Origin: Promethearchaeota archaeon
GTDB lineage: Archaea > Asgardarchaeota > Lokiarchaeia > Sigyniarchaeales > SOKP01
DNA length: 48,823 nt
NCBI GenBank assembly: GCA_013375475.1
Contig: JABXKD010000018.1
Span: forward strand, 306-49,128
Reading direction: 5' to 3'
Shown: piece by piece, positions 12,931-23,597 of the stretch
How positions within the stretch are numbered: the stretch's first letter is position 1
How the letters are laid out: the number at the start of each line of letters is the position of its first letter
The notes under the pieces: generated by a model
Told to the model about the DNA's origin: nothing
What the model saw: only the letters and a program-made list of their open reading frames with translations
Databases searched by the model: none
Position numbers and translations under genes: made by a program

Positions 12931-13058
12931 TTTTCTAATCACTTTTAGTCTCGAATTAATAAGTATACTAATAGGAATTAAATAAGGAGTCAAAATTAAT
13001 TTTATGTTTATGGATTTATAAAAAATTAGAAATATTAAGAAAATGAACAAAGAAATAT

Positions 13059-13475
13059 TTAATTTATAATTAGGTATCGAAAATTCTTTAATTCTTTAAT
13101 TCCATTTATTTCCACTACGATACTTTGAAACTCCTGAATCTCCCCTTCAAATATCATAAAAATTATAAGGTTTTCGCCTTGGAAGTGTTGATTCTTGTTT
13201 ACAACTTGCTCTTTATATCTATTCTCTATTTTATTCAATTTTCTCTGTACGGTTGGATCGTGTGGAGCAACGATTATCAAATTACCAACAATTCTTTTAG
13301 CTATTGTGCCTAAATCTCCATAAGTTTCCAGACTAGAGATTTCAATATCCGACATTAGCCGCAAGAGAGCATCTCTTATCAACTTGGATTTATTTTCATA
13401 TTGATTTCTGGAAACTAATTTATTAATAAATTGCTTTAAACTTTCATTAATAGAAAAACTGATTATAGGACTCAT
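13059..13475 (-). CDS. NikR-like ribbon-helix-helix plus ACT-like regulator
   Basis: IISFSINESL...YENKSKLIRDAL RHH motif and an ACT-like C-terminal domain. Most NikR His/Cys ligands are absent. Confidence 0.75.
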   Translation of the reverse strand: MSPIISFSINESLKQFINKLVSRNQYENKSKLIRDALLRLMSDIEISSLETYGDLGTIAKRIVGNLIIVAPHDPTVQRKLNKIENRYKEQVVNKNQHFQGENLIIFMIFEGEIQEFQSIVVEINGIKELKNFRYLIIN

Positions 13476-13551
13476 CTGAATACTTAACTCTTCTTACTTA
13501 TTACTAATATAAATTCATCACTACACTTATAAATATTTTCAGCAAAGAAAG

Positions 13552-15924
13552 CTATAATTTAATGGCTCGACTAATGACATTATTGAACTTTTCAATATCG
13601 TTAACTAATTTATCAGCGTGCTCATCACTGATTTTATCGTCTTTGCCATACTTATTCAACTCTGTCAACCAATATTCAATTCTTCCTAAGATAGCTTCGT
13701 TATCTCCTAGAATTTTTCTTACTCTTACAAAAGTATCATGTAATTTATTACGAATATTTTGTGCTTTCCATCGTAACATACAATAATCCGAGACTTCAGC
13801 AAGATTCTGAGTTATAGCCATTACATCAATGGTTCTTTCCCTTTCTTCCGATTTAATCTTCCGGATTATATTTATCTGTTCGAACAATAATTCAATGACC
13901 TTTGCTAGGAATCCTGTAAGTTGTCCTGGATTTCCACACCAAACTCTTACTTCTAACGACTGACTCGTCTCGGAGACGTAAACTCTTGTGATTATTCTCC
14001 CGCCTGTTACTTTTGCTTCTGCACAAAACCAAGCTTCCGCTTCGTAGTTTCCTTTGGCGTCAGAACCTTCATGGGAAGTAACAGCGCTAGTATCAAAATT
14101 TTTCAAAGTACGAATTGCTGCTCTGAACGCCAATCGAGGATCTAAATCAGCGATTAAAAATGCGCGTGCATCATTTCCTAGCGTTTGAATTGCAGTTTGA
14201 CAGTCCTCTATAGTGCTCATCGAGGTGCAAACCAAGGGGCATTTAATTTGGATTTCTTTTTTCCTTATGTGAAGCGTGTGTTTAGTGCCTTGGGCATCCT
14301 TGTAGATAACATCGCCTCCAACATTGGAGATTCCGCATTGTTTTGGCTCAAGGTAAAAATCTACACCTCTACTATTGTTAGCCTCAATTACGGGAATATT
14401 AATTAACGGTTGTTTGAGTTTATAGCTTGAAGGAGCGTCTAGAATTACTTTAACATTATTTATTGCCATAGTGCTTAAGTTACGAACGGCAATTTTCATG
14501 TGTACTTGCCCGCCTTCAAAATCATAGTCCCTCACAACTTCAATTTTACCTTCTTCAACAGTTTCAGCCTTTTTCTGTTTTGCCCGAGGTGATTCTGTTG
14601 TGGTGCGAGGAACGCTATATGCGGTAAACATTCTTTTTCCTAAATCGATATACCCATCAATATCTCCATTTCCAATTAATTGGGCAAGATGTTCCTCTAT
14701 GCTTGACTCGGTCACACCCAATCGATTTGATAACTCTCTTAAAGGCATTGTTCTATAAGCCCTAGCAATCTCTTTTATTTTTGTTTCCAGATATTTGCGG
14801 GTCATAAATTCCCTACGCTGAGTAAAGAGTCCTTTTACTTTTCCAGATTTAATAAGTTCGTGAAGGCTTTTTCTCGCTAATTCTACTGCGATTTTGAGTT
14901 TTTTGGCTAGGTTAGATAATTCAAATAATCCTACTTCTTTAGAATATTGCTTTATTTCTTTGTAAATTTTGTCTGAAGTGATAATTTCGTTTCCACGATC
15001 TGCAAAAAATCCGTTAATGGTATTTAATCTCATTAAATTAACGCAAAAAGATTTTGCTAACTCTGTGGGGATATCAAAAACTTCGGAAAGTTTAACTAGT
15101 GAAATTCTTCCCTTTTTATTGATTTCTTCCACTAAACGATCCATTATATATTTTTGAGAATAATAAAACTGTTTTGTTTGTGAAAACGAGCCTTTAATTT
15201 GGAATTGACTAAGTAATTTGTAGATAACTTTGATCGCAGCTTCAGAACTCATATCAAGCATTACCGCCAGATCTGGTACTTTTATAATTCCTTCATTTTG
15301 AATCTTTGAAAGAATTTTCTCCCGGATTTCATAGGAGATATAGAAAAATATCTGGTTTTTCTGATCAACTATGCCGTATATTCGATCTTCGTCAATATAT
15401 TGATTTATTAATTTTACCATCTGTTGAGCATTTATTTTAAATGATTCTATAATTGTTGAGAAATTTGTAATTGGGGCTCTTTTCAGAAATTCTAAAAAAC
15501 AATTTGGGCAAATATCCTTTCCAATTATCCTTTTCAACGTTCTACGACATAAATTGAGCCTATAACCTTGAATCAAGTTATATTTTGTCGCTTCTCTAGC
15601 TAATTGCTCTTTAGTAGGAAAAAACAATCCCGGAGATTTTGAGTAAGAGTTCCAACTACATGTTTCATCAATGCACTCTAAATAGTATTGGCCAGAGGAC
15701 AATCTCTCTAGTCTTAAAAGGGATTTACACTCTGGGCATTTGCTATTCTCGATAACTGTGCACTTATAAAATTTTTCAGCAGCACTTGCTTTTGAATAGT
15801 GTAACTCATGCTTCTTACAAAGCCAACTTTCTGTAGTTGCCATATGGTGGATGCAAAAACTCGAATTGCATTTCTCACACGTAAATGAGATGTTTTTGTT
15901 TTCGCAGAATTTGCAATCAACCAT
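13552..15924 (-). CDS. Multidomain protein: Zn fingers, tandem winged-helix (PCI-like) repeats, Ig-like plus platform domain, helical tail
   Basis: Cys/His clusters in the first ~150 aa, about five L..L...L....G.I.G repeats, then a beta-sandwich and an alpha/beta domain. ATG at 15924 follows GGAG. Confidence 0.85.
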   Translation of the reverse strand: MVDCKFCENKNISFTCEKCNSSFCIHHMATTESWLCKKHELHYSKASAAEKFYKCTVIENSKCPECKSLLRLERLSSGQYYLECIDETCSWNSYSKSPGLFFPTKEQLAREATKYNLIQGYRLNLCRRTLKRIIGKDICPNCFLEFLKRAPITNFSTIIESFKINAQQMVKLINQYIDEDRIYGIVDQKNQIFFYISYEIREKILSKIQNEGIIKVPDLAVMLDMSSEAAIKVIYKLLSQFQIKGSFSQTKQFYYSQKYIMDRLVEEINKKGRISLVKLSEVFDIPTELAKSFCVNLMRLNTINGFFADRGNEIITSDKIYKEIKQYSKEVGLFELSNLAKKLKIAVELARKSLHELIKSGKVKGLFTQRREFMTRKYLETKIKEIARAYRTMPLRELSNRLGVTESSIEEHLAQLIGNGDIDGYIDLGKRMFTAYSVPRTTTESPRAKQKKAETVEEGKIEVVRDYDFEGGQVHMKIAVRNLSTMAINNVKVILDAPSSYKLKQPLINIPVIEANNSRGVDFYLEPKQCGISNVGGDVIYKDAQGTKHTLHIRKKEIQIKCPLVCTSMSTIEDCQTAIQTLGNDARAFLIADLDPRLAFRAAIRTLKNFDTSAVTSHEGSDAKGNYEAEAWFCAEAKVTGGRIITRVYVSETSQSLEVRVWCGNPGQLTGFLAKVIELLFEQINIIRKIKSEERERTIDVMAITQNLAEVSDYCMLRWKAQNIRNKLHDTFVRVRKILGDNEAILGRIEYWLTELNKYGKDDKISDEHADKLVNDIEKFNNVISRAIKL

Positions 15925-16090
15925 TATTCGCTTTTCTCCATTTATCAAATACGAAATAATTAGTATACAATATATATGAAAATACTGATATAAATTATTT
16001 TATGAGACCAATAATGATTCTTTTGAATTATTAATGGGTTTTTAATTTTGTGTTTAAAATCCAAAAAACTATTAATTGCTTTCATAGTAA

Positions 16091-16801
16091 CTATAAACCT
16101 TCTACTGGAAACACAGAAATCCGCAAAAAGGAGAGCAACATAACCACTGTATTGAAGATGATGATGATCAATATCATAATATAGAAAATAGTTTTTTTTC
16201 TGTCTTTTTTTGTCTTCACGATAAGAGAACTACCTTGTTTAGCAAGAGCAAGTGGAAATAATCCCACGAAGGTGCCTAAAGAAAAATAAAATACCACTAA
16301 TAAGCCTTCTATAAATCCATACCCAAGAGAAAACGAAATTGATTGCGAATATATAATTAATTCAAATATACAAGGTGCGAATCCCGCTAAAATTCCAAAA
16401 AAATAAGGAGTTTTCTTTAGTTCCCAATCTAAACTTGCAATATCCTTAAAATATTTGGAATGAGGCATATAATCCCTTCTTGTGATGAAAAAAAGAAGAA
16501 ATATCCCCGCAAACATAGAAGTGAAAGCCCCAAAAAAGTTTACAATGTATGGGTCAGGATCATAAGCGGGAAAGACAAATCGAGGCACTTGTGTAATAAA
16601 TACTGATATAGATGCAATGATCATATTAGCACTAATTAAACCCAATCCATATAATGCCAGTATATATATGCTCTTCTTAGGAGTTTTAGCGATGCCAAAC
16701 GACCAAAAGAAGAAGATGGCTTTGTCTTCGCAAGGGATGGCTGTGTGGAGGATTCCTAATAAAAATGCTGGCATTAAAATGAAGAAATATTCTTGAACCA
16801 T
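16091..16801 (-). CDS. Membrane protein of DsbD/UreH/NicO-like (LysE superfamily) type
   Basis: About six TM helices with LGILHTAIPCEDK and GFAPCIFE motifs. ATG at 16801 preferred as start. Confidence 0.6.
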   Translation of the reverse strand: MVQEYFFILMPAFLLGILHTAIPCEDKAIFFFWSFGIAKTPKKSIYILALYGLGLISANMIIASISVFITQVPRFVFPAYDPDPYIVNFFGAFTSMFAGIFLLFFITRRDYMPHSKYFKDIASLDWELKKTPYFFGILAGFAPCIFELIIYSQSISFSLGYGFIEGLLVVFYFSLGTFVGLFPLALAKQGSSLIVKTKKDRKKTIFYIMILIIIIFNTVVMLLSFLRISVFPVEGL

Positions 16802-22793: not shown

Positions 22794-23597
22794 TTAATTA
22801 TTCTCTATTATGGCAACAGGTCTTACCCACGCAGCACTTGCTCCTAAAATTTTAATAGGAAAACAACTTATCTTGAATCCATAGGACGGAAGTTTATCTA
22901 AATTAGTCAATTTTTCCATCTGATAATATTCTCTCTCAATACCCGCGTAATGACCTTCCCAAATTAGACTTTTATCTCCTGTCTCACGGAATTCTTTAGC
23001 TTGAATATGAAAAGGACGATCCCAACCCGCTGCGTCAGTTCCAACTACTTTTATCCCCTGATCGACAAGCCAAATTGTCCCTTCTCGCCCTACTCCCGTG
23101 TAATCTGTCCAATATTTTAGAGTATCCCAATATTTATCAGCACCAGTCCGAATAAGAACAATATCTAAGGATTTTAATGTATAATCTATTTTTTGAAGAG
23201 CTTCTTGAATATCATCAGAGCTTATTAAATCCCCTGGCTCTTTATGTGTCATGTCTAACACAACCCCATCACTGAAACAGTATTCGATAGGGATTTCATC
23301 AATAGTTTTTGATTTTTTCCCTTCACTTGTCGGATGGTAATGCCATGGAGCGTCCATATGTGTGCCCATATGAACTCCCAAAGATAAAAAATCATCAGCC
23401 CAGGCTAATCCATCCGGAAGATCTTCACCGGAAATTCCTGGAAATGATTTAACCATAATGGACACATTTTCTTTATGACTTGCGTGTTTTATCTTTGCAG
23501 ATAAATTTTCTTCAAGATATTTAAATTTTGGTGGCAAATCACCTAGGCCTTCCTTAATTTCCAAACTCAAATCGACAAATCGTGTATTATTAACCAT
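22794..23597 (-). CDS. Cyclase / kynurenine formamidase-like metal hydrolase
   Basis: HMGTHMDAPWH, VLIRTG, VGTD and EKLTNL motifs. Confidence 0.9.
   Translation of the reverse strand: MVNNTRFVDLSLEIKEGLGDLPPKFKYLEENLSAKIKHASHKENVSIMVKSFPGISGEDLPDGLAWADDFLSLGVHMGTHMDAPWHYHPTSEGKKSKTIDEIPIEYCFSDGVVLDMTHKEPGDLISSDDIQEALQKIDYTLKSLDIVLIRTGADKYWDTLKYWTDYTGVGREGTIWLVDQGIKVVGTDAAGWDRPFHIQAKEFRETGDKSLIWEGHYAGIEREYYQMEKLTNLDKLPSYGFKISCFPIKILGASAAWVRPVAIIENN

Follow-up and report, generated by a model that had tools for sequence, protein, structure and literature searches.

In animals, where UFMylation is essential, the E3 of this pathway has neither a RING nor a HECT domain, and one of its domains is completed by two proteins together. 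From what such a composite domain could derive is the question raised by a gene in a 48,823-nucleotide stretch of Lokiarchaeial DNA (Promethearchaeota archaeon, GenBank assembly GCA_013375475.1, contig JABXKD010000018.1, positions 306 to 49,128 of the forward strand), hereafter the window. The gene encodes a single chain in which a cysteine-rich zinc head is followed by five tandem winged-helix (WH) domains of about 60 amino acids (aa) each, and a disordered linker leads from there to an appendage of the adaptin/COPI type and a Vps28 C-terminal bundle; it is a real, well-conserved Asgard eukaryotic-signature protein. We interpret the WH rod as the single-chain counterpart of DDRGK1 (UFBP1) and UFL1, and the five-part protein as a non-catalytic cargo adaptor similar to the ESCRT-0 of the endosomal sorting (ESCRT) complexes, not as a UFM1 ligase, an interpretation in which we place about as much confidence as doubt. 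A preliminary description had flagged the span 14610-15924, which covers residues 9-446, the N-terminal 55% of the open reading frame (ORF). The parts of the gene are listed below; residue numbers, here and throughout, are those of the 798-aa frame.

13552..15924, minus strand: complete gene, encoding 790 aa when read from the ATG at 15924, with the stop codon at 13552-13554
15808..15915, minus strand: first zinc module, residues 12-47, eight Cys/His ligands
15658..15762, minus strand: second zinc module, residues 63-97, with a CxxC...CxnC cluster resembling a zinc ribbon and with beta hairpins in the model
15499..15549, minus strand: third cluster of cysteines (C134, C147, C150), residues 134-150, leading into WH1
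15334..15507, minus strand: WH1, residues 148-205, counterpart of the full DDRGK1 WH (WH1')
15157..15333, minus strand: WH2, residues 206-264, intact counterpart of the eukaryotic composite WH
14977..15156, minus strand: WH3, residues 265-324, counterpart of UFL1 WH1
14800..14976, minus strand: WH4, residues 325-383, counterpart of UFL1 WH2, the most basic unit (net charge +7)
14620..14799, minus strand: WH5, residues 384-443, counterpart of UFL1 WH3, the most PCI-like and best conserved WH
14545..14619, minus strand: flexible linker, residues 444-468, predicted local distance difference test (pLDDT) below 50 in both models
14239..14544, minus strand: appendage beta-sandwich, residues 469-570, covered by the Foldseek matches to COPI/AP2 appendages
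13858..14238, minus strand: platform subdomain of the appendage, residues 571-697, similar to the AP4 beta appendage 2mj7
13555..13857, minus strand: four-helix bundle like the Vps28 C-terminal domain, residues 698-798, by Pfam VPS28 and 2j9w_A

The first step is to ask whether the array is a genuine repeat and, if so, of which kind. In the AlphaFold2 model of the N-terminal half (no templates, 23-row alignment; mean pLDDT 87.8, predicted template modeling score (pTM) 0.62), five consecutive units repeat one helix-strand-helix-helix-hairpin pattern. When the units were aligned locally and each of the 10 pairs was compared with 300 shuffles, five pairs were never matched by the shuffles (0/300; z 5.1-10.6), two were marginal (5/300 and 11/300 shuffles) and three were no better than shuffles. 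The tandem WH repeat is more than chance, and the approximately five ~60-aa repeats noticed in the preliminary description are borne out, including its two quoted peptides, which occur in the translation at residues 197-228 and 266-294. Searches of the whole protein against Pfam yielded 61.3 bits for E3_UFM1_ligase (PF09743; cut-off 23.2), with residues 233-443 running colinear with profile positions 21-234 of 272, and 55.4 bits for DDRGK (PF09756; cut-off 27.8). The best sequence match in the PDB is the human DDRGK1-UFL1 chimera 8b9x, with an E-value of 6e-6 for the single sequence and 2.1e-14 for a 12-row profile; PCI-type chains appeared at E 0.12 (COP9 subunit 4) and 0.89 (Rpn9). The proposed likeness to DDRGK1 and UFL1 thus holds by Pfam scores above the cut-offs and by sequence and fold alike, the same chimera being best in both. 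The pairing of individual units does require correction: the archaeal unit that includes KYIMDRL had been matched to the UFL1 unit with YLDRLAEEVN, one repeat out of register, because in significant colinear alignments the former aligns to UFL1 WH1, and the latter to archaeal WH4.

Comparison of structures leads to the same relatives. The chimera 8b9x tops the Foldseek search (E 7.7e-14, TM 0.69-0.70 on the target), and the ribosome-bound UFL1 chains are the closest solved relatives after it (E 8.5e-12 to 2.2e-10); among generic arrays, SelB reached 9e-6 at a root-mean-square deviation (rmsd) of 15 A, ESCRT-II 6.5e-4, and subunits of the proteasome lid and the COP9 signalosome (CSN) 2.6e-3 or worse. 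With VIA-align, 8b9x_B superposes at Z 16.4 and rmsd 3.3 A over 240 of 255 residues, spanning WH1-WH4, and native UFL1 on the 60S subunit at Z 10.7-10.9 over 206-207 residues, such that UFL1 29-246 falls on model residues 227-435, that is, from the second half of WH2 through WH5; PCI subunits (CSN, Rpn) reach Z 12-13 on one or two units only, WH4-5. Because the chimera superposes over such a length, the head-to-tail packing of consecutive WH units is common to the archaeal protein and UFL1/DDRGK1, in a comparison of a predicted model (pTM 0.62, no templates) with solved structures. It had been anticipated that the likeness would dissolve if SelB, ESCRT-II or PCI domains scored equally well or better, with no UFL1-like packing; they do not (7.7e-14 for the chimera vs 9e-6 or worse for all of these), and the packing itself is shared. 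The PCI proteins of the lid, CSN and eIF3 have a similar single-WH fold but are preceded by a helical-repeat region that is absent in the archaeal model, and the WH arrays of SelB and ESCRT-II share the fold of the unit but not the packing of the array. As modeled, the array is UFL1/DDRGK1-like and not a generic WH array.

How, then, does a single archaeal chain relate to two eukaryotic ones? In the domain description given by Peter et al., the human pair consists of seven WH repeats, one of which is a composite domain to which UFBP1/DDRGK1 and UFL1 each contribute a partial WH; their domain map includes a UFL1 N-terminal helix (residues 1-25) and a long DDRGK1 N-terminal region. Our family profile matches residues 217-297 of 314 in native human DDRGK1 at profile positions 138-219 (E 3.1e-6) and a 194-residue UFL1 fragment at positions 221-343 (E 0.0033), and the chimera aligns across the DDRGK1/UFL1 junction in one piece in the sequence search. 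The two ranges abut, and therefore archaeal WH2 appears to be the intact form of the eukaryotic composite WH: judging from the sequence alignments, its first half corresponds to the partial WH of DDRGK1 and its second half to that of UFL1. The end of DDRGK1 lies opposite approximately M230 and the start of UFL1 opposite approximately D232, at the boundary between helices 2 and 3 of WH2, where UFL1 residue 29 aligns with the start of helix 3 in the VIA-align superposition; the residues matching the eukaryotic break are thus ~230-232 (window 15256-15258). The same succession, a DDRGK-like unit and then a UFL1-like array from profile position ~25 on, is also present in the diverged relatives P0122 (residues 136-221, then 226-434) and P0173 (6-92, then 103-294).

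The direction of the change is suggested by the status of WH2 itself. In the model, WH2 shows the same secondary-structure pattern as WH3-5, and, taken as a complete unit, it resembles WH3 and WH4 significantly (z 5.6 and 10.6 in the 300-shuffle test). Because WH2 is an ordinary member of the tandem repeat, a split of one chain is a more natural reading than a joining of two, and the evidence tips, if only slightly, toward an origin of eukaryotic UFL1 and DDRGK1 by fission of an Asgard single-chain WH array, cut between helices 2 and 3 of WH2, with the Lokiarchaeial protein representing the pre-fission state. Within the running text of the literature that was covered, we found no statement that eukaryotic UFL1 and DDRGK1 are one archaeal chain split within a WH domain.

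The order and the packing of the PCI-like WH units are the same in the archaeal protein and in the human UFL1-DDRGK1 complex (8b9x; 8ohd, 8qfc and 9gy4 on the 60S subunit), but the human complex is made of two chains with a composite WH, whereas the archaeal protein is one chain with an ordinary, intact WH2. The archaeal protein further lacks the UFL1 N-terminal helix (residues 1-25), WH4-5 and C-terminal region of UFL1, as well as, judging from the model, in which residues 9-147 form Cys-rich hairpins, the membrane anchor and the long helix of DDRGK1. The N-terminal helix is missing because the archaeal chain is continuous at this point: the equivalent of UFL1 27-29 lies inside the intact WH2, preceded by helices 1 and 2 of that domain. 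In the human enzyme, this helix is the UFC1-binding element, and binding to the 60S subunit falls mainly to UFL1 WH4-5, the C-terminal region of UFL1 and DDRGK1's long N-terminal region. With the parts that make the eukaryotic pair a ribosome ligase absent, and no Ufm1 or UFC1 detected by Pfam, the earlier characterization of the backbone as E3-like is not sustained. In place of these parts, the archaeal protein carries the zinc head at one end and, after WH5, the linker, the appendage and the Vps28 bundle.

Fourteen Cys and His residues (C12, C15, C24, C27, C32, H35, C44, C63, C71, C74, C92, C134, C147 and C150) are invariant in 12/12 aligned homologues, H47 and C97 are nearly so, and C147 and C150 are kept in at least 90% of the 23 alignment rows; in the model, the Cys-rich hairpins continue until residue ~141, with two short helices within residues 9-147. 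The first module could hold two zinc ions because it has eight Cys/His ligands. The Cys clusters reported ahead of the array are therefore genuine. As to their assignment to the AN1 type, the Pfam listing for the head at E up to 1 comprises four families but no zf-AN1, and AN1-type chains match weakly (7yab_A, AN1-type zinc finger protein 1, E 0.29; 1x4v_A, E 0.14); the first module is possibly AN1-like. For the second module, there are leads only, to Zn_ribbon_Top1 (E 0.21) and to topoisomerase-type zinc ribbons (Atlas score 0.77).

The C-terminal half (pLDDT 90.6, pTM 0.71) finds its best Foldseek matches in the COPI and AP2 appendages, at 1.9e-10 to 1e-8 over both lobes and 234-256 columns, in full agreement with the proposed fusion to an appendage module. 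Taken singly, the sandwich (469-570) is a generic Ig-like sandwich (Z ~12-13.7 by VIA-align), and the platform superposes on the AP4 beta appendage 2mj7 at Z 13.7 and rmsd 2.7 A over 118 residues. The corresponding sequence models remain below their cut-offs (GAE_BBS1; Alpha_adaptinC2, 14.8 vs 27.6 bits), and residues 600-698 match no Pfam family at E up to 1. The ears of AP2 alpha and beta2, AP4 beta and COPI gamma and beta have the same two-lobed construction of sandwich and platform, but the adaptin trunk and hinge are absent from the archaeal protein, and the predicted orientation of the lobes differs. The terminal bundle matches Pfam VPS28 (cut-off 24.5) at 24.5 bits in the whole protein and 29.6 bits as an isolated segment, at profile positions 88-182 of 188, and its superposition on the Vps28 C-terminal domain 2j9w_A covers 98 of 101 residues at Z 14.9 and rmsd 2.2 A. 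The bundle is thus like that of Vps28 in ESCRT-I, but the N-terminal core of Vps28 that pairs with Vps23 is absent.

A related module occurs elsewhere in the host. A 226-aa protein matching Sel_Asgard (NCBIfam, 'putative selenocysteine system protein') at 222 bits is encoded on the minus strand of another contig (C230, L118:13638-14318), directly downstream of an O-phosphoseryl-tRNA(Sec) selenium transferase gene, and residues 601-790 of the studied protein (window 13555-14146) match the same model at 35-38 bits; the module of platform and Vps28-like bundle therefore also exists as a free-standing paralogue near selenocysteine genes.

The architecture, as such, is already in the Asgard literature, and it is the residue-level mapping and the fission reading that are added here. 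The text of Liu et al. (10.1101/2020.10.19.343400) describes Asgard fusions in which Vps28/Vps23 are joined with adaptin/COPI C-terminal domains and E3 UFM1 ligase 1, and that of Makarova et al. (10.1101/2024.02.06.579148) presents the class combining Vps28-C, an appendage and HTH/PCI domains as 'functional analogs of ESCRT-0' that reach ESCRT-II without ESCRT-I. Asgard relatives of UFL1 and DDRGK1 are reported in the text of Picchianti et al. 2023 (PMC10183829), and the PMC12962969 supplement includes Asgard proteins with UFL1 as the best SwissProt structural hit and contains no 'ddrgk'. By these text descriptions, the studied gene is most likely a member of the described Vps28-C/appendage/UFM1-ligase fusion class. 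In the passages of Liu et al. and Makarova et al. that deal with this class, neither the zinc head nor the DDRGK1-like character of the first WH comes up, nor does a residue-level match to the DDRGK1/UFL1 junction. With the fusion, the ESCRT-0-like class and the Asgard relatives of UFL1 and DDRGK1 in print, the notion of an undescribed system is not supported; the perception that a single chain of this architecture is not eukaryotic was correct.

What could such a protein do? Judging by its domains, its role would most likely be that of a non-catalytic ESCRT adaptor. The target, a protein or a large assembly, would sit on the zinc head and the stiff WH rod, partners with short motifs would be gathered by the appendage, and the Vps28-like bundle would dock the whole protein onto the host ESCRT-II/III, bypassing ESCRT-I, which would amount to an ESCRT-0-like cargo adaptor. 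Published accounts of the class read it in this way too. This model is supported by the gene complement of the host, because it includes a canonical Vps28 elsewhere in the genome (matching profile positions 2-186), a Vps22-like gene beside a Vps4 gene, three ubiquitin-family genes above the cut-off and three E2-type matches. Published text also reports a yeast two-hybrid interaction of Vps22 with Lokiarchaeal and Heimdallarchaeal ESCRT-I proteins (Vps28 and/or Vps23). Complex prediction for residues 674-798 and the host Vps22-like protein returned no answer (score 0.00), which speaks neither for nor against binding.

Some details of these host loci are worth recording. The Vps22-like gene (EAP30, 31.8 bits) belongs to a compact ESCRT cluster on contig C209 (L082:1498-3656) that contains two more genes, a divergent 299-aa coiled-coil gene with a WH-like end and the 3' part of a gene resembling a Vps4-type AAA ATPase, both judged by eye. 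An E2-type (UQ_con) match of 61 bits on the minus strand of contig C226 (31094-31558, locus L133) is interrupted by three in-frame stops (1 TAG, 2 TAA), perhaps because the gene is broken or the assembly faulty.

Several observations weigh against our interpretation. Within the WH array, the highest summed Pfam score belongs to generic PCI (PF01399), with 77.1 bits over 5 stretches, and WH5 alone is the most PCI-like unit (40 bits for PCI; as a single WH, it superposes on CSN and lid subunits at Z 12-13). When the whole protein is scanned with Pfam, the strongest individual DDRGK stretch falls one repeat downstream, at 210-289, so the similarity among the repeats blurs the register, and full-length UFL1 chains are not listed at E up to 1 in the profile search against PDB sequences. 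In the C-terminal half, the orientation of the sandwich relative to the platform is unlike that in solved appendages (rmsd 11.6-13.6 A with both lobes aligned), and the N-terminal ESCRT-I core of Vps28 (profile 1-87) is missing. The gene lies outside the ESCRT cluster, which is on another contig, and none of the 17 window neighbors (0/17) was found in any of the five loci (5/5) with 41-46%-identical orthologues. The proposed adaptor function itself rests on domain homology, and there is room for a ligase-like role because the equivalent of WH1-WH3 is the human minimal ligase domain.

This last point is the strength of the alternative that the protein is a scaffold-type E3 for an archaeal ubiquitin-like modifier, either ubiquitin or a divergent Ufm1-like protein, with the WH1-WH3 equivalent activating a charged E2. 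Human WH1', the composite WH and WH1 are described as sufficient for ligase activity in the published text, the archaeal WH1-WH3 superpose on this minimal domain with VIA-align, and the genome has ubiquitin-family and E2-type genes. Ufm1 homologues are, moreover, reported in nine Asgard clades in the text of a 2026 structure-based survey, so that the Pfam Ufm1 model, which has no match in this genome at E 0.001 (best E 1.4) and none among 400 Asgard genomes (0/400) at the same threshold, evidently misses the structurally reported homologues. Nevertheless, the Ufm1 search stands against a ligase as far as it goes, as do the absence of a UFC1 match in this genome by Pfam, a search in which the control gave no match in any genome, the statement in the text of Picchianti et al. 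(PMC10183829) that UFM1, UFC1 and UFSP2 are found only in eukaryotes, and the uninterrupted archaeal chain where the N-terminal helix of UFL1 is situated. We regard this alternative as unlikely.

A further alternative is a ribosome factor independent of UFM1 and ancestral to the UFL1/DDRGK1 clamp, which would bind the large subunit and connect it with membrane or quality-control machinery. It draws on the UFL1 chains on the 60S subunit being the closest solved relatives after the chimera, on the resemblance of WH3 to ribosomal protein S25e (25.4-25.6 bits vs the cut-off of 28.8) and on charge counts by which WH4 and the zinc head are basic. However, the parts of UFL1 and DDRGK1 through which the human complex mainly binds the 60S subunit are all absent, and no ribosomal or translation gene is a conserved neighbor beyond close kin, which makes this alternative quite unlikely.

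The PCI-like side of the array has to be considered in its own right, as it would befit a subunit of a PCI-type complex (lid, CSN or eIF3-like) or a self-assembling scaffold that oligomerizes via WH-WH contacts and is unrelated to ESCRT. Taken in isolation, WH1 has DDRGK as its best Pfam family (33.1 bits, profile 102-180 of 188), and WH2 has E3_UFM1_ligase (20.4 bits), whereas the matches of WH3, to Ribosomal_S25 (25.4 bits), DDRGK (19.3), E3_UFM1_ligase (17.7) and PCI (17.4), are all below the cut-offs; by these unit-by-unit scores, single WH units are PCI-like, and the human UFL1 and DDRGK1 units are likewise described as PCI-like by Peter et al. The summed PCI score and the alignment of WH4-5 to CSN and Rpn subunits speak for such a subunit. 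It nevertheless seems improbable, given that the model has no helical-repeat region ahead of the WH units, that the whole array is far closer to the chimera than to lid or CSN chains in the Foldseek comparison, and that the appendage and the Vps28-like bundle would be left without a role. Finally, the DNA-binding transcription regulator that is implied by the automatic names of some relatives ('DNA-binding Lrp family transcriptional regulator'), by weak HTH-family matches (HTH_DeoR, HTH_24, ArsR types) and by the combination of zinc fingers with several basic units is highly improbable, as every HTH-family score is below its cut-off, the array-level matches are protein scaffolds, and the fusion to an appendage and a Vps28 bundle is without parallel among regulators.

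The distribution and conservation of the family and the single copy of the gene count in favor of the ESCRT-0-like adaptor. Of 7,997 candidates scored in a word-indexed search, 255 reached E <=0.001; the 120 relatives listed of these are 72-96% identical to the studied protein and 735-795 aa long, and each carries PF01399, PF09743 and PF09756, most of them being entered as 'PCI domain-containing protein' or 'DUF2042 domain-containing protein' in Lokiarchaeota/Promethearchaeota bins. In an exhaustive search of 50% clusters, E 0.001 was reached by 526 proteins, 1e-10 by 168 and 1e-30 by 26; the best 150 of the 526 contain only three full-length orthologues, at 41-46% identity, and most of the others match only residues ~455-700, where the promiscuous appendage module lies. 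Of the 132 pattern matches in species-representative genomes, 121 were confirmed, and the best 80 of these 121 loci are 65-99% identical and nearly all labelled Promethearchaeota. An 87%-identical full-length copy in a bin titled Nanopelagicaceae, an actinobacterial family (locus L005), is probably a mis-binned archaeal contig.

The Pfam E3_UFM1_ligase model matches in 177 of 400 Asgard genomes (172 above the cut-off): 117/134 in the window's own family, 12/19 in other families of the order, 7/7 in other orders of the class and 40/239 elsewhere in the phylum, where the proteins are often shorter or different. Conservation is uneven along the chain. The sandwich and the platform are best conserved, with 58-60% identity to the distant orthologues, whose overall identity is 40-45%; mean identity to the distant orthologues is 49% for WH5, 21-32% for WH1-3 and 12% for the linker, which also varies in length.

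Pfam scans of 40 window ORFs show that the gene is surrounded by genes of housekeeping and metabolism, with neither a ubiquitin nor an ESCRT partner among them. Within the best 80 close loci, a ribbon-helix-helix gene downstream and a DsbD-like gene upstream are each kept in 75/80, a peptidyl-prolyl isomerase in 70/80 and GT87-type genes in 68/80. Because the neighbors are lost in all five distant orthologue loci, this synteny reflects kinship rather than function, and gene neighborhood, conserved as it is only among close kin (75/80 loci), was rejected as a clue to function. The downstream gene of 138 aa (window 13059-13475, minus strand), 77 bases away on the same strand and with an N-terminus that looks ribbon-helix-helix-like by eye, matches no Pfam family at E 1e-5 and is present in none of the five distant orthologue loci. 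In two genomes from a different family within the class, a relative of the zinc head and WH half (25% identical; L122:6354-8660 and L126:8897-11168) adjoins a homologue of the putative cyclase (PF04199), which counts as one observation because the two genomes are kin; a putative cyclase (PF04199) is also encoded in the window, at 22794-23597, ~7 kb from the studied gene.

The gene model itself calls for one adjustment. The ORF listing gives 13552-15948 on the minus strand, 798 aa counted from a TTG at 15948, 8 codons upstream of the ATG (window 15925-15948). Homologues of 787-791 aa have alignments that begin at residue 9-12 of this frame, so the ATG at 15924 is the likely start, giving a protein of 790 aa, and an automatic call of 798 aa would be too long. 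The gene is single-copy and the sole E3_UFM1_ligase locus by Pfam search of its genome (assembly of 3.92 Mb in 288 contigs, marker completeness 100, contamination 6.4; window G+C 28-36%). Contigs from RNA libraries (3 metatranscriptome runs from 2 studies) cover parts of 13399-15876 at 95-99% identity and low depth, one of them, of 527 bases, running past the stop codon as far as the first part of the downstream gene, and the flanks 13000-13392 and 15882-16536 have no RNA-library cover but are covered by a DNA run. These contigs do not prove expression because contigs do not show the strand and may stem from carried-over DNA.

Among the results reported here, the fission reading is the part worth following up. 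The holding of both halves in a single archaeal repeat would explain the oddity of a composite WH made of two proteins in the UFM1 E3. If the fission did occur, the scaffold would be older than UFM1 conjugation and would have first worked together with coat and ESCRT-type modules, and the N-terminus created by the cut would be the site at which the E2-binding helix of UFL1 was later placed. The archaeal protein would then be a concrete pre-UFM1 ancestor with testable partners, and its fusion to an appendage and a Vps28 bundle would tie the ancestor of UFL1 and DDRGK1 to membrane remodeling, which bears on how trafficking and quality control were assembled before the eukaryotes.

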